Below are positions 3,076 through 63,486 of a stretch of 64,000 bases of DNA, in pieces (the stretch's first letter is position 1; the number at the start of each line of letters is the position of its first letter). The stretch covers positions 4,253 to 68,252 of the forward strand of contig JBAZXG010000001.1 in NCBI GenBank assembly GCA_041660005.1, given 5' to 3'. The position numbers and the translations under genes are program-made. The notes beneath the pieces are model-generated. The model had not been told where the DNA came from. It was given only the letters and a program-made list of their open reading frames with translations, and ran no database searches. The stretch is from Patescibacteria group bacterium. Lineage in GTDB: Bacteria; Patescibacteriota; Patescibacteriia; GWA2-46-9.

Positions 3076-3149
3076 TGGCAGGAGCGGTAGGAATCGAACC
3101 TACGACGACCGATTTGGAGTCGGTCATGATGCCACTTCACCACGCTCCC
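3076..3149 (-). tRNA. tRNA-Trp (anticodon CCA)
   Basis: The reverse complement folds as a cloverleaf: acceptor GGGAGCG/CGCUCCU, anticodon stem ACCGA/UCGGU, loop CUCCAAA, T-loop GGTTCGATTCC, encoded CCA. Confidence 0.85.
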
Positions 3150-3811
3150 ATAGTTTGCGCTACTGCATGATATATAGATGCTAAACTTCTAGCAATACTA
3201 GCATCATTGTACCGTACCGATAAACAACCTTGATACCCATCTCGAACTCGCACACCAGTATTCGGCTTTTGGTATGATCTCATGAACTGCGAAATGGGTA
3301 TACCTGTTACGCGCGACCAAAACTGCAACTGTTCCTTTTCGTTATGATATCCGTGTAAATGAATAAGCGCATGGAGCTTACCATTGTCAATATTGTAACC
3401 GCGTCTAAGTGCAGTTAAAAAGGCGGACACCAAATCAGGATCAGAATTTGTGAACTGCAATGTTGACAAGTACCTTTTGCTGCCCTCACACCAAAAAATA
3501 AGAGCAGCGAATAACCGCCAAAAATCTTTATTCCTGGTGCCAAGATGAGCAGCTACCAGTTTTTTTGCTTCTTGCGACCGCTTCGCTTCTGCTTCATCGC
3601 GATGAACAGCTTGTAGGTGTCGACCCCGGGCACGACCCAGTGCTGAATTATTCAACAATTTATTTTTTGCAGCAATTGATAAGTCAACATCACGCACCCA
3701 GATATAGGCTGTGCTCTTAGCGATACTTAAAAGTTTCGCAATATCGTCGATTGATTTCCCGGACGCTCTTAACAGTTGGGACTCCTTCTTTTTATTGGTT
3801 GGGTATAACAT
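3137..3811 (-). CDS. HTH plus LAGLIDADG-like homing-endonuclease-like protein. It is a paralog of the 59996-60685 gene.
   Basis: N-terminal HTH (SIDDIAKLLSIAKSTAYIWV). Single LAGLIDADG-like motif LIFWCEGSK, aligned with LAILYAGEGSK in the paralog. The 3' end abuts or overlaps tRNA-Trp. Confidence 0.55.
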   Translation of the reverse strand: MLYPTNKKKESQLLRASGKSIDDIAKLLSIAKSTAYIWVRDVDLSIAAKNKLLNNSALGRARGRHLQAVHRDEAEAKRSQEAKKLVAAHLGTRNKDFWRLFAALIFWCEGSKRYLSTLQFTNSDPDLVSAFLTALRRGYNIDNGKLHALIHLHGYHNEKEQLQFWSRVTGIPISQFMRSYQKPNTGVRVRDGYQGCLSVRYNDASIARSLASIYHAVAQTMGAW

Positions 3812-7669: not shown

Positions 7670-8627
7670 CTATTTCACCTGCGGGCATCTTTTGCGCTGT
7701 TTCAGTGGCCCATTCAAGCAATGCCGAGGCATCCTCGGCTCGATTCAAGACTGACGCACTTCCTAAAACAACCGTAAGCATTTGATTCCCCACCACGTCA
7801 CCCCCTAAAACCGCCACATTATAGCCCGATTCATCAATAAATCCCGTTTTGCCGGAAATAAATTGCCAAATATGTGGCATCGGTAACGCACCTTTCAACT
7901 CTTGGTCTGTATTGTAAACCTTGCGCTGTTTCCCGCTGACCAAAATGAACGCCTCTGCCTCAGCCAGCGGTTCCGCGATGCGCGACTCTGCAAAAGCACG
8001 CCTAGCCACAACGGCATACTCCCTGGCGGTGGATAGGTTACCCGAGGACAAACCCGTTGGTTCAACAAAAGTAGTTTTTGTAAGATTTAAAGACTTTGCT
8101 TCTGCGTTCATCTTCTCTACAAAAGATTGCTCCGATATACCAAGCCCTCGAATAAAAGCAACGACAGCGTCGTTATCAGAACCAACGAGCATGAGTGTCC
8201 ACAAATCTTGCATGCTGACAACTTCACCAGGATAGACGCGCTGCTGCGCACCCGACCGACGATCTGCATCTTCAATGGTGACCGTTTTGCTCCAGTCTGG
8301 GTGAAGCGACAAAGCGACAAGCGCTGACATAAGTTTTGTAAGACTGGCGAGCGGCGCAACATCATCGGCATGGTAGCGAACAAGAGGTAGCTGCACGGGT
8401 TTCTCTAAACTGACGTATGCACGACGCGCCGTTAAACGTGAAAGAAGAAGTGGCGGCAGTGGAGGGCGATAATAATCTCGCTGGCGCGGCAGCGTGCCCG
8501 CTTTGACACCGGATACCAAAGCGGAATCACTGACGCCAGGAAAAGCCGCCGCAAAAGTGGTTACATTGAACAAAGTTACAACTGCGCAGAGTGCAATTGC
8601 AAAAAAAATAATCCGCTTACGTAACAT
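7647..8627 (-). CDS. D-alanyl-D-alanine carboxypeptidase (peptidase S11, PBP5-like)
   Basis: SxxK (ASLTKLM), SDN (GSDNDA) and KTG (SGKTGF) motifs. The start is likely the internal Met MLRKRIIFFAIAL... (signal peptide). The longest ORF extends to 8756 and overlaps scpB. Confidence 0.75.
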   Translation of the reverse strand: MLRKRIIFFAIALCAVVTLFNVTTFAAAFPGVSDSALVSGVKAGTLPRQRDYYRPPLPPLLLSRLTARRAYVSLEKPVQLPLVRYHADDVAPLASLTKLMSALVALSLHPDWSKTVTIEDADRRSGAQQRVYPGEVVSMQDLWTLMLVGSDNDAVVAFIRGLGISEQSFVEKMNAEAKSLNLTKTTFVEPTGLSSGNLSTAREYAVVARRAFAESRIAEPLAEAEAFILVSGKQRKVYNTDQELKGALPMPHIWQFISGKTGFIDESGYNVAVLGGDVVGNQMLTVVLGSASVLNRAEDASALLEWATETAQKMPAGEIDGNRLLY

Positions 8628-28565: not shown

Positions 28566-28589
28566 GCTTCATATCACAACAGCAAAAAT

Positions 28590-28620
28590 CCCCATTTCGT
28601 GGGGATTTTTGCTGTTCGTT
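28590..28620 (-). terminator. Perfect 11-bp hairpin AAAAATCCCCA-TTTCG-TGGGGATTTTT, bidirectional terminator-like
   Basis: Immediately downstream of the 28636-30834 gene. A-run and T-run flank the stem. Confidence 0.55.
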
Positions 28621-28635
28621 TGTATTTTCTCCTAT

Positions 28636-30834
28636 CTAACGCGTCGCCCCAGAGTACGTGATGGCCTGCATTATATTCCAGTCATTTGTTGAATTGGGCG
28701 TACGACCGTAAATATCTTCAAATATCTCAATGCCCTTCTTCTCACTCTCTAATTTTCGGTTTTCAGCTTTTTGCCTGAGACCATACGCCATAACGGTAAC
28801 GGCGGCATTATCCTTGCCGTTCTGAAGGTTTGCTTCCCGCTTATAGATGTTTTTGAACTCAATTTTTGCACGACTTTCTGCTACCGCACTCTTCTTCTCT
28901 GGCCATCTGCCATTAGCAATTTTAATCGCATCAGTGAGTTCATCCTCGCTTTCGGGTAACTTGCCAAAGGCAGATTTGTACGAATACATCACTGCCGCTC
29001 GCTCTCCTGCTCCAAGCTTTTGTGTATTATCATCCACGCCGTAGGTGATAAAATTACTTAAGGCCTCTTTTGCCTCTTCAGATTTCATCACTTGACCAGA
29101 TGTCAATGCTCTAAGGTATTTGATTTCGGTCTCCTGCTCTTTAATGATGTTTCTAAGTTCTTTCAGTTCTCTTAGGATGGAATCAACATTATTTTCTTTC
29201 AGTAGGTACGCTTTCTCGCCGATGGTTTGCAACTGTTCGTCGGCAACTGAATCTTCCTTGCTCTCATCGGTACGAATTTGCACCTCTGTTTCTACTTCCG
29301 TCTCGCCGACTTCAGTAGTGCCAGTGCTCCCTCCACCTCCGCCGCCACCTGAACCGGAAGAAACAAACCACACAACGTTTGAACGGTAGGTTTTACCTGC
29401 CTTGCGGTCTATTAAAGAAATATAAACCCCCAGCGGTGGAGTACTCCCCTTCTTAATGGCGAACCAGAGATCATCCAGTTCTGCTGCTTTTTTCAGCCCG
29501 CAGAAACCATATATTCTTTTACCGTTTGCTTCGAATATCTCTACCCAGGTTCGGGAAGAGTTCACGTTAAGTCCGCACGCCGGCAAACTTGGCGCAACTT
29601 CAAACAGGGTATCAGGAAATGATGAACGGTTTGTTACGCTCAACCGGTAACGTACGAATTGACCGTCATTCGTTGAATAACTTTCAGTTCCTTTAAAGAC
29701 CAGCACAGGCTTAACGACCAATTCATCCTTATAATCAACGACAAAAACGTTACTGTCGTCATACCAACCTGACGCACCCGACGCACACGACTGACAGGCA
29801 ACCGTGATGACGTATTTGCCCGGGGCAATGCCGTCCGGAATGGTCCAAGCATAGGAACCGGTGTTCTTTATGCTGAGCGCAATGTTCTTTGTTTTTGTAT
29901 TTTCCCGGTCATTCAAGAGCACGTTGACGAGCCAGTTTGCTTCACCGCCACTCCAGGTGATATTACGCGTGTCACCAATGTACCAGGTTTCCCCGACGTT
30001 TTCTGGCGTATGAACAACGATAGGTTTCGTAATGTTCACGCTGCCATTAATCGTAAAAACGGGGCCGTCGCCAAACCACCCGGTTGTACCCATTTTGCAA
30101 CTCTGGCAAGCAACCCTAATAAAATATTCTCCCGGCTCAAGGTCGCGAGGAATGGTCCAAGAATAGAAACCGGTATTCTTTATGCTGAGAGCAATTTCTT
30201 TTGTGCGAGCAGTTTCTTTACCGGCTTCGATTAAGAGAACATTCACCGACCAGTCGGTTCCTCCGCCACCCCAAAAAATATTATAGGTCTGCCCAGCGTT
30301 CCACACAGCACCCGACTTCTCCGGAGTTGTCACGACAATGGACTGGTTAGTCAGCGGCGGTATGGTTACCTTCTGTTCCAGGGAGTTATTTTCTTCGTTA
30401 AATTCTGAAAGAATATTTTTAGGATCAACGGTTGCTCTGAAATAATACGTTTCGCCAGGTACAGCGTCAAAATATGCTGCCCCGCCGGTACCGTTTGTTT
30501 TACATTCACCCGGAGCAACCGCACTAACTCCCACCAAGTGATGGACAACCCGTGGCGCTCCCATGCCAATACGCTGAGTATCAACTTGAACCTCGCCTGA
30601 ACTCACTCCTCCGTTATTACAAACCGTAACCAAAATGACGCGATACGGTGTCGTGTCCGCTGCTATGGCGGACACGGATAAATCAGCTGACCGAACCGGA
30701 AAACCTAAAGACCCGCTCGAATCATCTGACGAAACTTCGGCTGCAGAAACAACGCTGACAGAAAAAACGGACGCACTAACAAGACTTACCGCAAACAGAA
30801 TCCCAACAAAAAGCGACATTTTTCTTCCTGACAT
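28636..30834 (-). CDS. Large secreted/surface multidomain protein. Domains in order: signal peptide, CARDB-like domain, two tandem ~100-aa Kre9/KNH(GPI-anchored)-like domains, beta-rich domain, poly-Gly linker, coiled-coil/alpha-helical C-terminal domain.
   Basis: N-terminal hydrophobic signal. Internal repeat IVVTTPEKSGAVWNAGQTYNIFWGGGG...YFIRVACQSCK versus IVVHTPENVGETWYIGDTRNITWSGGE...YVITVACQSCA. GGGGGGG linker. Confidence 0.7.
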   Translation of the reverse strand: MSGRKMSLFVGILFAVSLVSASVFSVSVVSAAEVSSDDSSGSLGFPVRSADLSVSAIAADTTPYRVILVTVCNNGGVSSGEVQVDTQRIGMGAPRVVHHLVGVSAVAPGECKTNGTGGAAYFDAVPGETYYFRATVDPKNILSEFNEENNSLEQKVTIPPLTNQSIVVTTPEKSGAVWNAGQTYNIFWGGGGTDWSVNVLLIEAGKETARTKEIALSIKNTGFYSWTIPRDLEPGEYFIRVACQSCKMGTTGWFGDGPVFTINGSVNITKPIVVHTPENVGETWYIGDTRNITWSGGEANWLVNVLLNDRENTKTKNIALSIKNTGSYAWTIPDGIAPGKYVITVACQSCASGASGWYDDSNVFVVDYKDELVVKPVLVFKGTESYSTNDGQFVRYRLSVTNRSSFPDTLFEVAPSLPACGLNVNSSRTWVEIFEANGKRIYGFCGLKKAAELDDLWFAIKKGSTPPLGVYISLIDRKAGKTYRSNVVWFVSSGSGGGGGGGSTGTTEVGETEVETEVQIRTDESKEDSVADEQLQTIGEKAYLLKENNVDSILRELKELRNIIKEQETEIKYLRALTSGQVMKSEEAKEALSNFITYGVDDNTQKLGAGERAAVMYSYKSAFGKLPESEDELTDAIKIANGRWPEKKSAVAESRAKIEFKNIYKREANLQNGKDNAAVTVMAYGLRQKAENRKLESEKKGIEIFEDIYGRTPNSTNDWNIMQAITYSGATR

Positions 30835-31074
30835 ACGAATTCAACACCTAAATATGAATAAATTGATGCTTTGGCAAGCACCCTAATGCCTTATATGACG
30901 GTACGCTGTTTTATTTCTTACAGACCCTTACACACTTTGCTTAGTTTCTTCTCATCACGACGGCTAGTCAAGTATTGCGGAGTGTTTTTGGTTGTTAGCA
31001 TGAAAAAATTTATTACCGGGTATTTGAGTGAAGTTCCAATAGCAACTTGCACCTACGATCGACACCAGCGTCAA

Positions 31075-31112
31075 TTTACACATTTTTGCGCGTACGCGCA
31101 AAAATGTGTAAA
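31075..31112. promoter_or_regulatory. 38-bp perfect palindrome TTTACACATTTTTGCGCGT|ACGCGCAAAAATGTGTAAA upstream of the secreted-protein gene
   Basis: Seen directly in the sequence. A near-identical 40-bp palindrome at 59063-59102 keeps perfect symmetry through paired substitutions. Confidence 0.5.
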
Positions 31113-31248
31113 AATTCTAAAGTACGAAAGCGCTAAATAGTAATCAATGACCCCGCCCCAAAGGGGACGGGGTATGTAATGGTATTTTGTCTTCTGCAAT
31201 GGTAACCTCGCGGCAAGCCGACAAGGTATTGGCAAAAATAAAAGCTGC

Positions 31249-33327
31249 CTACTTCTTTGCCCGCTCCCCAACGATCGTTTCGGTAACGTTTCGAGGAACT
31301 TCAGAATAGTGGGCAAACTCCATGGAGTGGCTAGCGCGGCCCTGAGACATTGAGCGTAATTCCGTCGCGTAACCGAACATTTCAGCCAAAGGAACCAGTG
31401 CGTCAATAACCCGCATACCACCGCGTTCACGCATTTCCTGTACCTGTCCACGGCGTGCATTAACGTCTCCAATAACATCACCCATAAACTGCTCCGGAGT
31501 AATGATTTCTGTTTTCATCATCGGCTCCAAAAGTACAGGATTTGCGCGCTTACAACCTTCTTGGAAAGCCATCGATGCAGCGATTTTAAATGCCGCCTCA
31601 GAAGAGTCAACGTCGTGGTAAGAACCGTCATACACCGCAACACTGACGTCAATCATGGGGTACCCGGCAAGCACACCACGGTCTAAGGCCTCTTGTACGC
31701 CCTTACGCACGGCCGGAATGTATTCGCGAGGGATAGCGCCGCCTTTAACCTCGTCAACGAATTCGAACCCAGCGCCTTCTTTGCGAGGGCTAACGCGCAA
31801 CCAGCAGTGACCGTATTGTCCGCGTCCGCCAGATTGCTTAATGTATTTTCCTTCAGCTTCTGAAACTTTACGAATAGTCTCGCGATAGGCCACCTGTGGC
31901 TTACCAACGGTCGCTTCAACTTTAAACTCTCGCTTCATGCGGTCGACAATGATGTCGAGGTGCAATTCTCCCATACCCGAAATAATGGTCTGCCCAGTTT
32001 CTTCGTCGCTCCTGACCTTGAAGGTTGGGTCTTCTTCAGCCAATTTTTGTAGGGCAATACCCATTTTTTCTTGATCTGCCTTGGTTTTTGGTTCAACCGC
32101 AACGGAAATAACTGGTTCAGGGAAGGTAATCGATTCAAGCACAACGGGTCGCGCTGGATCACAAATGGTGTGGCCGGTAAAGGTGTTACCTAGCCCGACA
32201 GCCGCGGCAATGTCGCCTGCGTAAACCATGTCGACTTCTTCGCGACTATTGGCGTGCAAGCGCACGATGCGACCGATGCGCTCGCGTTCATCAGTAACCG
32301 TGTTTAACACATACGAACCCGACTTCAATGTTCCAGAGTAAACGCGGAAGAAACAAAGCTTGCCGACAAATGGGTCAATAGCAACCTTAAAGGCGAGCGC
32401 GGTAAAGGGCTCGCTGTCGTCAGCTGGAATCAAAACCTGTTCTTCGCTGTCTGGTATAGTCGCCATGACTGGCGGTACCTCAATTGGTGAAGGCAAATAA
32501 TCAACCACCGCATCAAGGAGCTGTTGCACACCCTTGTTCTTCAACGCTGAGCCGCACAGTACGGGAATAATAGTCTGGGCAATAGTCGCTTTGTGGAGCA
32601 CGCGCTTCAAATCAGCAAGCGACGGCTCAGTGCCGCCAAGGTACTGTTCCATCAACACTTCGTCTTGCTCAACAATGGCGTCAATGAGTTTCGCGCGGTA
32701 GGTTGCTACCTTTTCTTTCATGTCGTCTGGAATATCTCGTTCTTCAAATTTCGTTCCTAGTTCGTCCGTATAGAAAAAAGCTTTCTGTGTCAAAAGATCG
32801 ATAATTCCAAGAAAATTCTCCTCAGCGCCAATCGGTAGCTGAATGGGGTAGGCCAGAGGGTTCAATCGTTCGTGAATAGAAGCAAGGTCAGCATAAAAAT
32901 CCGCACCCGTACGATCCATTTTATTGATGAAGCAAATGCGCGGCACGTGGAATTTGTCTGCCTGGTGCCAAACTGTTTCAGACTGCGGTTCAACGCCGGC
33001 CACGCCGTCAAAAACGACGACACCGCCGTCTAACACGCGCAGCGACCGCTGTACCTCAACCGTAAAGTCGATGTGCCCGGGCGTGTCGATAATGTTGATG
33101 CGGTTGTCCTTCCAGAAACAGGTGGTAGCTGCAGCAGTAATGGTGATACCCCGCTCGCGCTCTTGCTCCATCCAGTCCATGGTCGCTTCACCCTCGTGCA
33201 CTTCGCCTATTTTGTGTTTTTTCCCAGTATAGAAAAGGATGCGTTCCGTCACCGTTGTCTTACCCGCATCAATGTGGGCGATGATACCGATGTTGCGTGT
33301 TTTTTCAAATGTATAATCGCGAGGCAT
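31249..33327 (-). CDS. fusA: Elongation factor G
   Basis: [25 protein letters not shown]. 692 aa. Confidence 0.95.
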
Positions 33328-43994: not shown

Positions 43995-44087
43995 GTCCCG
44001 TCTGACGGGACCAAGGACATTCATGTAGTTCTTGGTCAAAATTATTGCCGAATAGCATTTGTACCATAGTTCGAACTATAGTACAAA
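43995..44087. repeat. About 95-bp repeat module, left copy: CCCGTCTGACGGG hairpin, spacer, palindrome GTACCATAGTTCGAACTATAGTAC
   Basis: Homologous to 46838-46931 (about 70% identity, same orientation) and partly to 63300-63350. Confidence 0.6.
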
Positions 44088-44177
44088 ATAAAAAAACAGT
44101 GGCTTTGAAAGCGGTTTAAAAAATACTACTCATCATCCTTACATTCTCAAGTATGTAAGGATGAGAAAATTAATATT

Positions 44178-44735
44178 GTAATCCTTCAAGGTCTCTTTTT
44201 TCTACTCTTTCGACTATGCTCACAGCAGATTGCTTAGGAGAGATAGGATCATTTTTACCTTTCGTATAAATGGCAACCCTTCGACTACGCTCAGGGTTAT
44301 TGTTTCTTCCTTATACAAAATTTGAAATCCTACGCTACGCGTTGGTAATCCTTCAGCTACGTTCAGGATCATTTTTACCTTTCCTTGAGGAAAGGTAAAA
44401 ATGAAAAACCTCCCGGCGGGGAGGACAAAAAATTGATAAAAGCAAGCTTCACGTATTGGTCTCATTTTGGCTGAAGGCCAGTTGGGCGATTGCGATCATG
44501 TTCGGCATCGTTGTGAAAATCACGCCGAGCGGAATGAGGCAATTGTTCGCCGCCGGTGCCCGCACCGTACGACCACAGTCGTGCGGAATAAAGACTCCAT
44601 TGCACCCATGTTGTCCCAAAAGAGAATCCAATAATGTTGTGAAGCTGCTTGCCCATTGAAGGGCTCATTAAGTTTAACCCCGTGATAAAAAAAGTCAATA
44701 AATGATAAGAGTAATCCCTCGGCTACGTCGTTTTG
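44178..44735. repeat. Array of degenerate 17-20-bp direct repeats (consensus aatccTTCGACTACGCTCAGG) with interspersed hairpins, iteron-like
   Basis: Copies at about 44178, 44204, 44270, 44322, 44346 and 44711. GGATCATTTTTACCTTTC occurs twice. Confidence 0.45.
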
Positions 44736-46837: not shown

Positions 46838-46931
46838 GCCCCGTCTGACGGGATCGAGGACGTTAACGTAGGTTTTGATAAAAAATTTTTACAAATAAAT
46901 TAGTACCATAGTCTAGACTATGGTACTAATT
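46838..46931. repeat. About 95-bp repeat module, right copy: CCCCGTCTGACGGGA hairpin plus 34-bp perfect palindrome AATTAGTACCATAGTCTAGACTATGGTACTAATT
   Basis: Direct repeat of 43995-44087. Confidence 0.6.
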
Positions 46932-46990
46932 TAAAACTTGTCTTTTAAAAAACTTTTCTTAAAGAAAATAAGAAAAGTTACAAATTTCTC

Positions 46991-57983: not shown

Positions 57984-58943
57984 CTAGCGTTGAACTGGCG
58001 GCCCAATCAACTTAGGAGGAAAAATATTATCCGGCCGTTGCAACTCGGGGTCAATCGTTCGCGCAAAACAAACGCGACCAGCACTGTGATCCCAATTTGC
58101 ATTTTCTATGCGCGTCGGAATGGAAGGCATTGTTTTTCCAACCTGTTCAGAAAACGCCGAAGAAAAAACGGCGCAGAGCTCAAACTGCAAATCAGCGAGA
58201 ACCTTGTACTCATAGGGCACCCCTGTTTCAGGATCAACGGGTACGGTGTAGCCAGTGAGACTGCTGGTGAGGTCCTCTAGTGTTTTGGGTAACGTATTCT
58301 TAGCTACCCAATAATCAACAACCTGACCTTGTGCAGTTTGTAGGTCGCTCACGCGCTGGTCATCAAACCGCCATGCTCGCTGCGTGGCCGGTGAACCGGC
58401 TAAGAAGAAACCGGAAACAACGGCGGCGATCACGAGAGCAGATAGCCCATACGCCAATGGTCGGCTGAACTTGTCTGTAACACCAGCTTCTCGTTTGAGA
58501 TCAGAAAGGTAATACCAAAACACCAAGGCAGCTACCGCTAGCACTACCAATATCTTTAGACCAAACCGCGTCGTCAATTCACCGCCGAGGAAACTCCGAA
58601 TGAGTACGATGAGGTCAATGATGATAGTTACCGCAGCAACAAAAAGCGTAAAGTTAAAAAGCCATCGACGCACGCGAATTTCTCGCTTCTCCGGATCGGC
58701 CTCTACATCTTTACCAAGGAGCCGCAGTACGTAGAGATAGACCGGCCAGGCAACGACGAGCGCCGCAATAGCTCCCTGCATGACGCTGCCGACCACTCGG
58801 CGCGATCGATAAAACTCTAGTGCGTCCGGGAAATACACATCAATAAACTGAAACAATAGCACAATGAAACTGACCACGCTGATAATCAGCGTAACAACGG
58901 CTAGCAAATGCGCAAACACGTCTCGCGGTGTGCTTTTGTTCAT
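57984..58943 (-). CDS. Membrane protein with 4-5 N-terminal TM helices and C-terminal extracytoplasmic domain
   Basis: Hydrophobic segments. The 59063-59102 palindrome lies about 120 bp upstream. Confidence 0.6.
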   Translation of the reverse strand: MNKSTPRDVFAHLLAVVTLIISVVSFIVLLFQFIDVYFPDALEFYRSRRVVGSVMQGAIAALVVAWPVYLYVLRLLGKDVEADPEKREIRVRRWLFNFTLFVAAVTIIIDLIVLIRSFLGGELTTRFGLKILVVLAVAALVFWYYLSDLKREAGVTDKFSRPLAYGLSALVIAAVVSGFFLAGSPATQRAWRFDDQRVSDLQTAQGQVVDYWVAKNTLPKTLEDLTSSLTGYTVPVDPETGVPYEYKVLADLQFELCAVFSSAFSEQVGKTMPSIPTRIENANWDHSAGRVCFARTIDPELQRPDNIFPPKLIGPPVQR

Positions 58944-59062: not shown

Positions 59063-59102
59063 TTTTACACAATTTTGTGCGTACGCACAAAATTGTGTAA
59101 AA
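59063..59102. promoter_or_regulatory. 40-bp perfect palindrome TTTTACACAATTTTGTGCGT|ACGCACAAAATTGTGTAAAA
   Basis: Paralog of 31075-31112. Differences between the copies are symmetric. Confidence 0.5.
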
Positions 59103-59107
59103 AATAA

Positions 59108-59130
59108 AACCGGCAGAGAGCCGGATTATT
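59108..59130. terminator. Hairpin AAACCGGC-AGAGA-GCCGGATTATT. A second near-identical copy sits at 59508-59530.
   Basis: 30-bp near-identical direct repeats separated by 400 bp. Confidence 0.4.
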
Positions 59131-59277
59131 ACGACCAAAAATGTCTTTAAGAAAGTTAAGATAACTTATCTAGCGGTTTGTTGTGCGCAGTCCAATACCC
59201 GTGAGTTCTTCGATAGGTACTTTAAAGCGCTCAGCTAAATAACGCGTCAGATAATCGAATTCATCGCTACGATCGAT

Positions 59278-59460
59278 CTATGTGGCGAGAGTCGTTAGCT
59301 GATGAGTAATTTCCTTATGTCGCACTTCCTGCTTTTTGTCCCAGTTGGTAAATTTGTCATTCAAACCGCGAACGGCCGTCTCGTGATAGGCCTTCAGGGC
59401 TGCATGGAGTTCTTTGCGAAGAGTCGCGGCTGTGAGCGGTTGATTGCGTGGCGTGGGCAT
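59278..59460 (-). CDS. Small hypothetical protein, 60 aa
   Basis: ORF track entry only. Lies between the two CCGGCAGAGAGCCGG hairpins. Confidence 0.25.
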   Translation of the reverse strand: MPTPRNQPLTAATLRKELHAALKAYHETAVRGLNDKFTNWDKKQEVRHKEITHQLTTLAT

Positions 59461-59620
59461 AAATATTATTCAGTGAACATATAGTAGCACATCCTGAAGC
59501 AAAATTAAACCGGCAGAGAGCCGGGTTATTTGAGAGATGTTTTGTCCTTTTATCCGAAAAGAGTTAAGTGCACTCGCACCTCGACTGGTTCGATAAACTC
59601 ACCACAAGTCACTATGTTCG

Positions 59621-59873
59621 CTCAGGAAGAGTCTGCCCTTCGGCTCATTTCATTCGCTCAGGACACTTCGACTCAGGAAGAGTCATGGGCACTCGCCCCC
59701 TCGACTAAGTCGGTGTCGCTTACCTCGGCAAAATCCTCGGCATCTTCGACGGGACACTTCGACCTGTGGTGAACGTAGTCGAACCATTTATAGTGAACAA
59801 CGTCGAACCACTCAGGAAGAGTCTGCCCTTCGGCTCATTTCATTCGCTCAGGACACTTCGACTCAGGAAGAGT
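59621..59873. repeat. Two 64-bp direct repeats (59621-59684 and 59810-59873), each containing CTCAGGAAGAGTC inverted pairs. The second abuts the tRNA-Val 3' end.
   Basis: Exact repeat visible in the sequence. Confidence 0.6.
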
Positions 59874-59878
59874 CGAAG

Positions 59879-59955
59879 TGGTGGGCGGCAGAGGATTCGA
59901 ACCTCTGACCTTTTGCGTGTCGAGCAAACGCTCTAACCAACTGAGCTAGCCGCCC
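59879..59955 (-). tRNA. tRNA-Val (anticodon GAC). Position 33 is C.
   Basis: Reverse complement GGGCGGCUAGCUCAGUUGGUUAGAGC G UUUGC UCGACAC GCAAA ... GGUUCGAAUCCUCU GCCGCCCACCA. Confidence 0.8.
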
Positions 59956-59995: not shown

Positions 59996-60685
59996 TCAAG
60001 CTTTTTCAACGACGCTTTGCATATAGGAATTTGCCAACAAAACAAGTTTCCGCTGAATTGCTACATTACCACATCGAACATGACAAACGCCTTTATATGA
60101 ATCGTACGTCTTAGACCCTAAAGTACGGCGATCTATATTAACCTGTCTAAAACAGGATAAGGGCAAGGCAAGCTCTTTTGACCAGTACTTTTTCAACTGA
60201 CTTGGATTCTGATCCGCCCGCAAATATAATTCGCATCTCATTTTCTGGATGTCGACCTTATAAACAGTACGCAGTACTTGTACAAAAAATCTTAGAATTA
60301 AAGGATTGGAACTGCCGAGCGCTGTCTCCAAATTTTTCTTGGAACCTTCTCCTGCGTAGAGAATTGCCAATGTAAGCTCAAGAATAGAACGATTGTTAAC
60401 GGGCAGTGAAAGCAGTGTCGCATTCGCTTGTTGCCTGGCTTCTTCTAAACGTTTTAATTTATCGTTGTTATGCCATACGACTGCTTTTTTCCGTGCCGAC
60501 ACAAGAGCATCTTCCCAACGTTTATCTAATTTCTTTTTTTGAGATGGAGTCAACGATATACCCCTTAACCAACCGCTGAGAGTCGAGCGCGGTATAGCGA
60601 GTTTCTGCTCAATGGTACGTATCGACATACCTCGTTTTCTTAACTGTATTGCACGCCCTTTAAATTCAGTCCACTGTGATTTCAT
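59996..60685 (-). CDS. HTH plus LAGLIDADG-like homing-endonuclease-like protein, paralog of 3137-3811, immediately 5' of tRNA-Val
   Basis: MSIRTIEQKLAIPRSTLSGWL HTH. LAILYAGEGSK motif. Collinear alignment with the paralog across the C-terminal domain. Confidence 0.55.
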   Translation of the reverse strand: MKSQWTEFKGRAIQLRKRGMSIRTIEQKLAIPRSTLSGWLRGISLTPSQKKKLDKRWEDALVSARKKAVVWHNNDKLKRLEEARQQANATLLSLPVNNRSILELTLAILYAGEGSKKNLETALGSSNPLILRFFVQVLRTVYKVDIQKMRCELYLRADQNPSQLKKYWSKELALPLSCFRQVNIDRRTLGSKTYDSYKGVCHVRCGNVAIQRKLVLLANSYMQSVVEKA

Positions 60686-63320: not shown

Positions 63321-63350
63321 TTTGTACCATAGTTCGAACTATGGTACAAA
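63321..63350. repeat. 30-bp perfect palindrome TTTGTACCATAGTTCGAACTATGGTACAAA, third member of the GTACCATAG family
   Basis: Exact palindrome in the sequence. Confidence 0.6.
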
Positions 63351-63486
63351 ACGAGAATAGCGCTTTTACGAATACAAAAAACAAACAACTACACTTTTTC
63401 ATTCTCACATTCTTACTTGCCCGTCCGTAGTTCGTGATAGCAAACGAAGGTGGGAGAATGTAAGAATGTCAAAATGAATCTTGATT

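Follow-up and report, generated by a model that had tools for sequence, protein, structure and literature searches.

The stretch of Patescibacteria DNA analyzed here (64,000 nucleotides, hereafter the 64-kb window) carries nearly all of its genes on the minus strand, and its GC skew is uniformly negative. It contains two long palindromes. The first lies inside the str operon region, in the gene order rpsL-rpsG-fusA, GC-rich hairpin, palindrome copy 1, a gene for a 732-amino-acid (aa) protein, and tuf:

31249 to 33327, minus strand: fusA (EF-G), the gene upstream of copy 1, after rpsL and rpsG in the str operon
31150 to 31173, minus strand: GC-rich hairpin ACCCCGTCCCCTTTGGGGCGGGGT 3' of fusA, read from the sequence, without a U-tract
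30981 to 31142, minus strand: noncoding module of 163 nt around copy 1, with 77% identity to a module in metagenome contig L011
31075 to 31112, no strand: palindrome copy 1 (variant V1), TTTACACATTTTTGCGCGT joined to ACGCGCAAAAATGTGTAAA, between the fusA hairpin and the 732-aa gene
28636 to 30834, minus strand: secreted Ig-like/CARDB protein of 732 aa, downstream of copy 1

Copy 1 is situated 3' of fusA and 241 nt 5' of the ATG (30834) of the 732-aa gene. The 732-aa protein has a full-length match to itself only, indicating that its gene is a lineage-specific orphan inserted between fusA and tuf. The hairpin behind fusA did not score as a terminator, and because it has no U-tract, transcription may read through it into copy 1; no promoter-like site was found between 30500 and 31500. 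In gene orientation, the 163-nt module is made up of ~30 nt upstream, the palindrome, and ~95 nt downstream. It is common to window copy 1 and L011 only, and its neighbors in L011 (an unknown gene and sufB) differ from those in the window. A third contig, L002, has the short flanks TYAGAAT and TTGAYR in common.

The second palindrome lies in a variable stretch after tRNA-Val:

59101 to 59124, minus strand: canonical intrinsic terminator, CCGGCTCTCTGCCGG then TTTTATTTTT, whose T-tract runs straight into copy 2
59063 to 59102, no strand: palindrome copy 2 (variant V2), TTTTACACAATTTTGTGCGT joined to ACGCACAAAATTGTGTAAAA
58972 to 58999, minus strand: sigma-70-like promoter TTGCAA-16-TATACT of the DUF5671 gene, a consensus match only
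57984 to 58943, minus strand: DUF5671 membrane protein of 319 aa, downstream of copy 2

Copy 2 lies 120 nt 5' of the ATG (58943) of the DUF5671 gene, and the predicted promoter of this gene places its center near -117; the two window copies lie ~83 to 160 nt upstream of the best promoter-like matches. A terminator call at copy 2 belongs to the separate CCGGCTCTCTGCCGG hairpin directly before the palindrome, not to the palindrome itself. A near-identical terminator without a palindrome is found at 59501 to 59530. We considered this duplicate as an "empty site" of the palindrome and rejected it, the alignment past the T-tract being unconvincing.

Both palindromes are spacer-less and 100% self-complementary, with arms of 19 nt in copy 1 and 20 nt in copy 2. 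Two changes separate the arms of the two copies (T/A at arm position 9 and C/T at position 15), and both are mirrored in the opposite arm. Since ~2e-7 perfect palindromes of such size are expected in random 64-kb sequence (64000 x 4^-19), two related ones in the window cannot be attributed to chance. Predicted folds are stable: either strand of copy 1 gives a 17-bp stem with a GUAC loop (about -24 kcal/mol; z about -6), and copy 2 reaches about -23 to -25 kcal/mol (z -7 to -8). Among Rfam families, the window matches tRNAs alone, with no match for the palindromes. The first-pass annotation, which described a pair of 38- to 40-bp perfect palindromes with mirrored differences upstream of the 732-aa and 319-aa genes, was accurate on these points. 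It had also denied that they are intrinsic terminators, and we agree: the stems are AT-rich outside the center, and no U-tract follows either of them on the gene (minus) strand.

A low-copy palindrome family in Patescibacteria

Are there further palindromes of this kind? The 64-kb window holds no other copy, degenerate copy, or half copy (14-mer with up to 2 mismatches, 19-mer arm with up to 5, 38-mer with up to 14). We scanned 185,579 species-representative genomes and the JGI metagenomes with the pattern TTACACA-N9-GTAC-N9-TGTGTAA, which leaves 18 interior positions free. Chance matches have 5 to 6 interior mismatches, whereas true members have none; eight loci (L001, L003, L005, L007, L009, L012, L014, and L019) were left out as chance matches of this type. 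A single true match came from the 185,579 species-representative genomes. Three more members were added by BLAST and by palindrome scans of fetched loci, and palindromes with unrelated interiors (L008, L017, and L018) were left out of the count. The resulting family comprises 11 distinct sites in seven sequence variants, all of them perfect palindromes on Patescibacteria contigs:

V1, arm TTTACACATTTTTGCGCGT: window copy 1
V2, arm ...CAATTTTGTGCGT: window copy 2, L011, and two sites in L013
V3, arm ...CATTTTTGTGCGT: L004 and L015
V4, arm TTTACATAA...: L013c
V5, arm TTTACACAAAAAATCTCGT: L002 (a Saccharibacteria MAG)
V6, arm TATACCTTTTTGTGCGT: L015
V7, arm CCCATTTGTCCGT: L015

The V2 38-mer is also present in contigs L016, L033, and L034. 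Copy number is low, with 2 sites per 64 kb in the window, 1 per 63-kb contig, and 3 clustered in an 80-kb contig, or ~1 per 20 to 60 kb.

In the family alignment, 13 of the 20 stem pairs show changes on both sides, and 95.5% of cells are paired. Columns 8 to 22 form a Watson-Crick pair in every cell, and the 22 double-sided changes in core pairs include no G-T (G-U) pair. None of 500 shuffles reached the observed pairing values, which collapse when the register is slid. A relaxed search of 217 kb of sequence found no member with an asymmetric mismatch. For most members, the outer boxes and the center were imposed by the search pattern, and V6 and V7 came from a perfect-palindrome scan; the unbiased covariation evidence therefore consists of the interiors of V1 to V3 and V5 together with the whole of V4. 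The palindromes are real and nonrandom, and they are members of a previously undescribed low-copy family; a literature search for Patescibacteria palindromes found nothing relevant. Because wobble pairs are absent and the invariant center CGTACG is itself self-complementary, the sequence pattern points to a constraint that acts on duplex DNA or on both strands rather than on one RNA hairpin.

Two observations concern the assemblies. An apparently inverted contig, L026, is an exact fold-back of 5556 nt, best explained as an assembly artifact, and other contigs end 25 to 80 nt from a palindrome.

All 11 sites are intergenic, and both the distance to the genes and their orientation (tandem, divergent, or convergent) vary. 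The downstream genes encode the Ig-like protein and the DUF5671 protein of the window, SufB (L011), an FtsX-type ABC permease (L004), and, in L013, a PaaX-like protein and a subtilase. The V6 site of L015 lies between convergent gene ends, and in L002 the site follows a tRNA-synthetase gene at a distance of 32 nt, with the contig stopping on the other side of the palindrome. From palindrome to nearest start codon or promoter-like sequence, the distance ranges from ~7 nt to >200 nt. The identical V2 38-mer occurs in contigs of 48 to 49% GC (the window and L011) and of 37% GC (L013), in unrelated contexts and with no other flank in common. The first-pass annotation had suggested a shared regulon for surface functions; this finds no support, since the downstream genes share no function and two sites adjoin gene 3' ends.

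Nor does copy 2 behave as a conserved regulatory site. The DUF5671 protein of the window is 100% identical to one from a Patescibacteria group bacterium MAG, and its nearest orthologue (75% identity) is in a Candidatus Uhrbacteria genome. The two closest orthologue loci, at 75% and 61% identity, both retain synteny downstream (DAHP synthase, PAP2, response regulator, NDK, and ATP synthase), yet neither has a palindrome upstream. Sites of this family are gained and lost quickly, and as judged from these loci they define no conserved surface-protein regulon.

Mini-PaaX genes bracketed by palindromes

In the 80-kb contig L013, three family-1 palindromes bracket a gene for a 218-aa protein, P0131, and the same holds in L033 and L034; the arrangement is seen in four population contigs besides L013. 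Two palindromes lie upstream of the gene, 223 bp apart, and the proximal one (L013b) stops 7 nt before the ATG. Its sequence reads TTGTGC-17 nt-TAAAAT-6 nt-ATG, which fits the geometry of a leaderless promoter. The third palindrome, L013c, follows 77 nt after the stop codon of P0131, upstream of the subtilase gene.

P0131 matches the Pfam profile PaaX_M (62 bits, above the cutoff) and a TIGR cas2 profile, and it scores 29 bits against TIGR02277 (PaaX), for which the cutoff is 264. When an AlphaFold model of P0131 (mean pLDDT, 77) was compared with the PDB, E. coli PaaX 8a39 ranked first (E, 2.4e-5; 205 aligned columns), ahead of other PaaX-like proteins, Cas2, and winged-helix proteins. In the family alignment, these "mini-PaaX" proteins have a hydrophobic segment at the N terminus, with a winged helix and a Cas2-like domain ("VIFDIP...QKSV") in which the Asp of the FDIP motif is retained and aligns with Cas2.

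Three further mini-PaaX lineages were fetched, with 31 to 37% identity to P0131. Each of these genes stands between two copies, one on either side, of a lineage-specific quasi-palindrome of 32 to 35 bp with conserved inverted boxes at its outer ends, so that protein lineage and site sequence co-vary:

L027: TAACCTGAA-N17-TTCAGGTTA
L030: TGAGA-N22-TCTCA, center GCTATAGC
L035: TGAGA-N22-TCTCA, center GCGATCGC

The difference between the L030 and L035 centers is mirrored too. At both of these loci, the downstream copy lies between convergent genes.

No mini-PaaX or PaaX_M gene is present in the 64-kb window or in the other loci where a site stands without such a gene. A mini-PaaX protein 75% identical to P0131, P0132 (MFA5954732.1), has an accession 745 away from that of the DUF5671 protein of the window (MFA5953987.1); judging from accession proximity alone, it is probably encoded in the same MAG as the window.

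Possible functions and the maintenance of symmetry

By analogy with E. coli PaaX, we tentatively regard the palindromes as candidate binding sites of a mini-PaaX (winged-helix/Cas2-like) dimer, an assignment to which we give a little less than an even chance. E. coli PaaX is reported to recognize the 39-bp sequence TGATTC(N27)GAATCA and, by steric hindrance, to repress the promoter of its own gene (PMC9493321). The family-1 palindromes have the same layout of conserved inverted half-sites at the outer ends of a long site (TTTACACA-N22-TGTGTAAA, 38 bp), with a spacer 5 bp shorter, and the L013b site likewise overlaps the predicted promoter of the regulator gene itself. A PaaX-like gene adjoins the site in L013, L033, and L034 and, with other site sequences, in L027, L030, and L035. 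Site length, outer half-site layout, position at the start site, and protein-site co-variation are what make the family-1 palindromes candidate sites of P0131-type mini-PaaX. The first-pass annotation had proposed a dimeric transcription-factor operator; this idea now has a concrete candidate, the predicted mini-PaaX protein whose gene is bracketed by three copies in L013, but the sites are not conserved at orthologous loci.

How might such a protein act? Mini-PaaX would combine its N-terminal hydrophobic segment with a winged helix-turn-helix and a Cas2-like dimerization domain, and a symmetric dimer or a dimer pair would contact the distal half-sites, 22 bp apart in the ~38-bp site, and probably the invariant center as well. 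At its own gene, bound mini-PaaX would cover the core promoter and the start site, leading to autorepression. The window palindromes would be "orphan" copies of the recognition site, at which mini-PaaX would sit between the upstream transcription unit and the next gene, where it could either regulate from an upstream operator or stop read-through in the manner of a roadblock.

The likeness to E. coli PaaX has its bounds. That protein consists of a GntR-like winged helix and a Cas2-like middle domain and autorepresses the Px promoter. Mini-PaaX shares the winged-helix and Cas2-like fold in its predicted structure, but with 218 aa against 316 it lacks the C-terminal effector domain, and it has the hydrophobic segment at its N terminus. 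Unlike the E. coli operator, the family-1 sites are conserved and perfectly palindromic through interior and center; they also occur 3' of the gene and at unrelated loci, and phenylacetate genes are absent. Low-copy, long (27 to 40 bp), conserved inverted repeats bound by dimers or dimer pairs are familiar from CIRCE/HrcA, QacR IR1, and BirA bioO, and some operators of these types also act at the mRNA level. Such operators, however, are found at orthologous promoters across phyla and have nonpalindromic spacers, whereas the family-1 sites are absent from orthologous loci and self-complementary through the center.

Several findings count against an operator. A mini-PaaX gene is missing from the window and from the other orphan-site loci, distances to promoters and starts are inconstant, one site (L015-V6) lies between convergent genes, and another (L002) lies past a gene end. 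A simple operator has no need of the downstream copies between convergent genes in L030 and L035. A transcription factor alone also fails to account for the strict mirroring, without wobble, of all of the at least 10 substitutions, or for a 22-bp interior that E. coli PaaX can do without and that genomes of 37% and 48% GC share unchanged. Fast turnover at orthologous loci is not predicted by a dimeric regulator alone.

Part of this may be a matter of mutation. The first-pass annotation read the symmetry as implying selection. That the symmetry is nonrandom is borne out by its persistence through many mirrored substitutions, but selection does not follow from it. Quasi-palindrome template-switch mutagenesis (the Ripley model, with its hotspots) is an established process in E. 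coli; it predicts that a mutation in either arm will be reversed or else transferred to the partner arm, yielding mirrored substitutions and perfect palindromes unselected. We know of no study of this process in Patescibacteria. Perfection is evidently not required by the mini-PaaX family, since the sites of the other lineages are imperfect. Intrastrand template-switch correction of a long spacer-less palindrome, and not only selection, probably keeps the symmetry perfect. It is a mutational mechanism and not a function, and it leaves the presence of the same sequence at many loci unexplained.

The identity between genomes and the scattered contexts resemble a dispersing palindromic repeat of the REP/REPIN type, the main rival of the operator and an explanation that we judge rather unlikely. 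The 38-mer would be copied as a unit into intergenic DNA via a single-stranded hairpin, with a protein acting in trans, and would spread among co-resident Patescibacteria; the mini-PaaX/Cas2-like cluster would be the counterpart of the REPs that flank a RAYT gene. In REPINs, hairpin-preserving compensatory changes are typical, and REPIN clusters flank RAYT genes (PMC3116915). The family-1 palindromes show such compensatory changes, lie in extragenic DNA of every orientation (tandem, divergent, and convergent), and form a cluster around one gene as REPs do around RAYT (TnpA_REP). V2 is identical in unrelated contexts of 48 to 49% and 37% GC, V3 is identical in L004 and L015, and orthologous loci in conserved synteny lack the site. 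Copies that have decayed or become asymmetric were not found. Both window copies edge lineage-specific DNA (the orphan gene at the str operon and the variable region by tRNA-Val), and the retained Asp of the FDIP motif also suits this explanation.

Against it stands copy number, which is tens at most rather than the hundreds of REP families: long metagenome contigs have 1 to 3 copies each, and 1 of the 185,579 species-representative genomes matched. The first-pass annotation had held that many copies scattered without promoter association would indicate a REP/MITE-type selfish repeat; more copies do exist and have no constant promoter geometry, but they are few. Loops and bulges are absent from these perfect palindromes, as are a target-site duplication and the GTAG-type 5' tetranucleotide of REPs. 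The flanked gene is PaaX/Cas2-like instead of a Y1 transposase, and the annotated open reading frames include no Y1/HUH (Y1_Tnp) or other transposase. Excision or insertion polymorphism was not found, presence or absence being uniform among the five L013-population contigs, and there was no match in viral contigs, phage records, or plasmid records.

A combination of the two is conceivable, by analogy with RAYT/REPIN, but we hold it to be improbable: mini-PaaX and the palindromes would form a self-propagating or addiction-type module on a Cas2-like fold. The protein would recognize, and perhaps nick, the extruded hairpin or cruciform, its own gene being bracketed by sites; bare 38-bp palindromes would be seeded into intergenic DNA and exchanged among co-occurring Patescibacteria, and symmetry would be a by-product of the hairpin intermediate.

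Three other explanations are each weaker than those of a mini-PaaX operator and a REP/REPIN-like repeat. That the palindromes work as RNA hairpins in mRNAs, whether as RNase III-type processing sites, 5' stabilizers, or insulators or terminators between transcription units, is improbable. In its favor are the stable predicted fold on either strand (-23 to -25 kcal/mol, z -6 to -8), the probable transcription of copy 1 with the str operon (as the fusA hairpin has no U-tract and the 30500 to 31500 interval no promoter-like site), and two individual sites: L015-V6, the only one with a T-rich tract behind it on one strand, and L013c, the sole hairpin after the mini-PaaX stop codon. No U-tract follows the window copies or most others on the gene strand, copy 2 sits directly 3' of a canonical terminator where a second one is unneeded, and in L002 the module probably faces the opposite way with respect to gene flow, if the next gene there is on the minus strand. 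The lack of G-U among the 22 double-sided changes and the invariant, self-complementary sequence of the would-be 4-nt loop also speak against a function in RNA.

Even less probable, in our view, are site-specific recombination sites bounding gene cassettes (Xer/pdif- or attC-like) and served by an unidentified recombinase. The sites do mark the edges of lineage-specific genes (the 732-aa orphan, the tRNA-Val region, both sides of mini-PaaX, and the small unrelated genes of L015), and conserved ends and center with a variable yet self-complementary interior are reminiscent of attC. However, no recombinase or integrase is encoded in the window between 34 and 64 kb or in the annotated flanks, the perfectly symmetric center allows no directionality, and no rearranged variants were seen among population contigs, the inverted L026 being a probable assembly artifact.

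Least probable of all, and by our estimate very remote, is a symmetric bidirectional sigma-70 promoter (TTGYGC as -35, TAAA plus flank as -10, 17 bp between, on both strands). L013b would be an exact leaderless fit, and both strands of copy 2 carry a flagged TTTACA-18-CAAAAT. The -10 element owes its key final T to the flank, though, and that T is present in only ~2 of 8 copies; V5 (L002) has no -35-like element, better promoter matches lie downstream of copy 2 and of the L004 site, two sites adjoin gene 3' ends (one between convergent genes), and a promoter does not need perfect symmetry.

A number of known elements were compared with the palindromes and rejected. A MITE is contradicted by the 11 sites, which have no consistent flanking direct repeat and no solitary arm marking a full-length element. 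The outer 9-mer TTTTACACA fits the DnaA box TTWTNCACA, but the window has no skew switch and no dnaA, and V6 and V7 have no such box, which argues against a DnaA-box cluster or oriC. The NrdR box (ACAC-N8-GTGT) and the CRP and Rex motifs (TGTG-N8-CACA) have N8 where the palindromes have N6, and RNR genes are absent. GTGAGTACTCAC matches the core GTGCGTACGCAC of the SlmA SBS at 10 of 12 positions, which is an analogy only. A resemblance to dif/Xer sites did not hold, and several copies within 1 kb argue against a protelomerase tel site. As for an I-CreI-like palindromic homing-endonuclease target, the only such trait of a nearby 229-aa HTH protein is a LAGLIDADG-like motif, and the protein has no Pfam match and is absent from the other loci.

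The palindrome family is an unusually clean natural case of strict covariation at the DNA level, with >10 mirrored substitutions, no wobble, and no asymmetric intermediates, and it bears on what keeps long palindromes perfect, selection or template-switch correction. It is also of practical concern, as a 38-bp perfect palindrome gave rise to a 5.5-kb fold-back contig in a public assembly. To our knowledge, Patescibacteria have very few recognizable regulators, and their cis-regulatory DNA is almost unstudied. If mini-PaaX does bind these palindromes, a widespread uncharacterized protein family, often misannotated as Cas2 or PaaX, would be paired with long palindromic sites on both sides of its own gene, making a testable protein-DNA pair.

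Quasi-palindromes at mini-PaaX genes of other lineages

In three other lineages (loci L027, L030 and L035), the gene for mini-PaaX, a small PaaX_M/Cas2-like winged-helix protein, is flanked on both sides by a quasi-palindrome of its own, in two copies of ~32 to 35 bp:

L027, 2932-2966 and 3516-3550: lineage-specific quasi-palindrome
L030, 2768-2799 and 3623-3654: lineage-specific quasi-palindrome
L035, 737-768 and 1561-1592: lineage-specific quasi-palindrome

The upstream quasi-palindromes of L030 and L035 differ by a mirrored change at the centre (GCTATAGC versus GCGATCGC). In L013, where three family palindromes bracket the mini-PaaX gene, a 42-nt unit is duplicated in tandem at 8206-8289 (both units of exactly that length, 95% identical), past the third palindrome (L013c) and before the promoter region of the subtilase gene.

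A second palindrome family and nearby hairpins

The window also contains palindromes with the core GTACCATAGT..ACTATGGTAC, unrelated to the family of copies 1 and 2, together with several hairpins:

44058-44087, 46896-46933 and 63321-63350: second palindrome family
~44003-44015 and ~46843-46855: CCCGTCAGACGGG hairpin, ~60 nt downstream of the 44058 and 46896 palindromes
44133-44164 and 63398-63478: CTTACAT..ATGTAAG hairpin, upstream of the 44058 and 63321 palindromes
44369-44404: a further long hairpin, TCATTTTTACCTTTCCT-TG-AGGAAAGGTAAAAATGA, inside or adjoining an 81-aa ORF

Of the three palindromes, two (30 and 38 bp) are perfect; the third carries a single one-sided mismatch. The small ORFs surrounding these palindromes gave no family match.

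Gene neighborhoods of copies 1 and 2

Copy 1 lies beside an insertion that separates fusA from tuf in an otherwise conserved str operon:

28636-30834, minus strand: gene for a 732-aa secreted Ig-like/CARDB protein, between fusA and tuf
28578-28616: long hairpin AACAGCAAAAATCCCCA-N5-TGGGGATTTTTGCTGTT, between the 732-aa gene and tuf

The hairpin looks like a terminator. No full-length homologue of the 732-aa protein was found; its C-terminal 180 aa resemble the C terminus of a 372-aa protein of L013 (27% identity), the gene of which precedes the palindromes of that locus.

Copy 2 (59063-59102) lies in a variable region downstream of tRNA-Val, one of two tRNA genes in the window with an HTH protein gene directly 5' of it:

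3076-3149: tRNA-Trp
3137-3811, minus strand: HTH protein
59101-59130 and 59501-59530: duplicated terminator, 93% identical
59167-59460, minus strand: 60-aa ORF upstream of copy 2, with a TAG stop followed by ~36 further in-frame codons
59621-59684 and 59811-59874: 64-nt direct repeat with identical copies 190 nt apart
59879-59955: tRNA-Val
59996-60685, minus strand: HTH protein

The two HTH proteins are paralogues (27% identity), both combining an N-terminal transposase-type HTH with a LAGLIDADG-like motif (LAILYAGEGSK). In L020, the orthologous Uhrbacteria locus, a 70%-identical fragment is present upstream of the DUF5671 gene. Only one of the terminator copies adjoins the palindrome. In the orthologous region of L024, the 3' half of the tRNA appears, as read by eye, to be partly duplicated. 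Repeated integration or rearrangement appears to have left these duplications and repeats behind. The TAG codon arose by a recent nonsense mutation or else is a candidate for read-through.

Palindromes at contig ends and in a fold-back contig

A family palindrome is located ~25 to 80 nt from the contig end in L002, L016 and L034. The public contig L026 (Logan contig SRR18595301_1619529, 1-5556) is an exact fold-back of 5556 nt, centered on palindrome copy 1 at the equivalent of window position 31093/31094; one half contains the gene for the 732-aa protein with the beginning of tuf, and the other half is their reverse complement. This fold-back almost certainly arose as an artefact of assembly, the cause being a perfect palindrome that exceeds the k-mer length.
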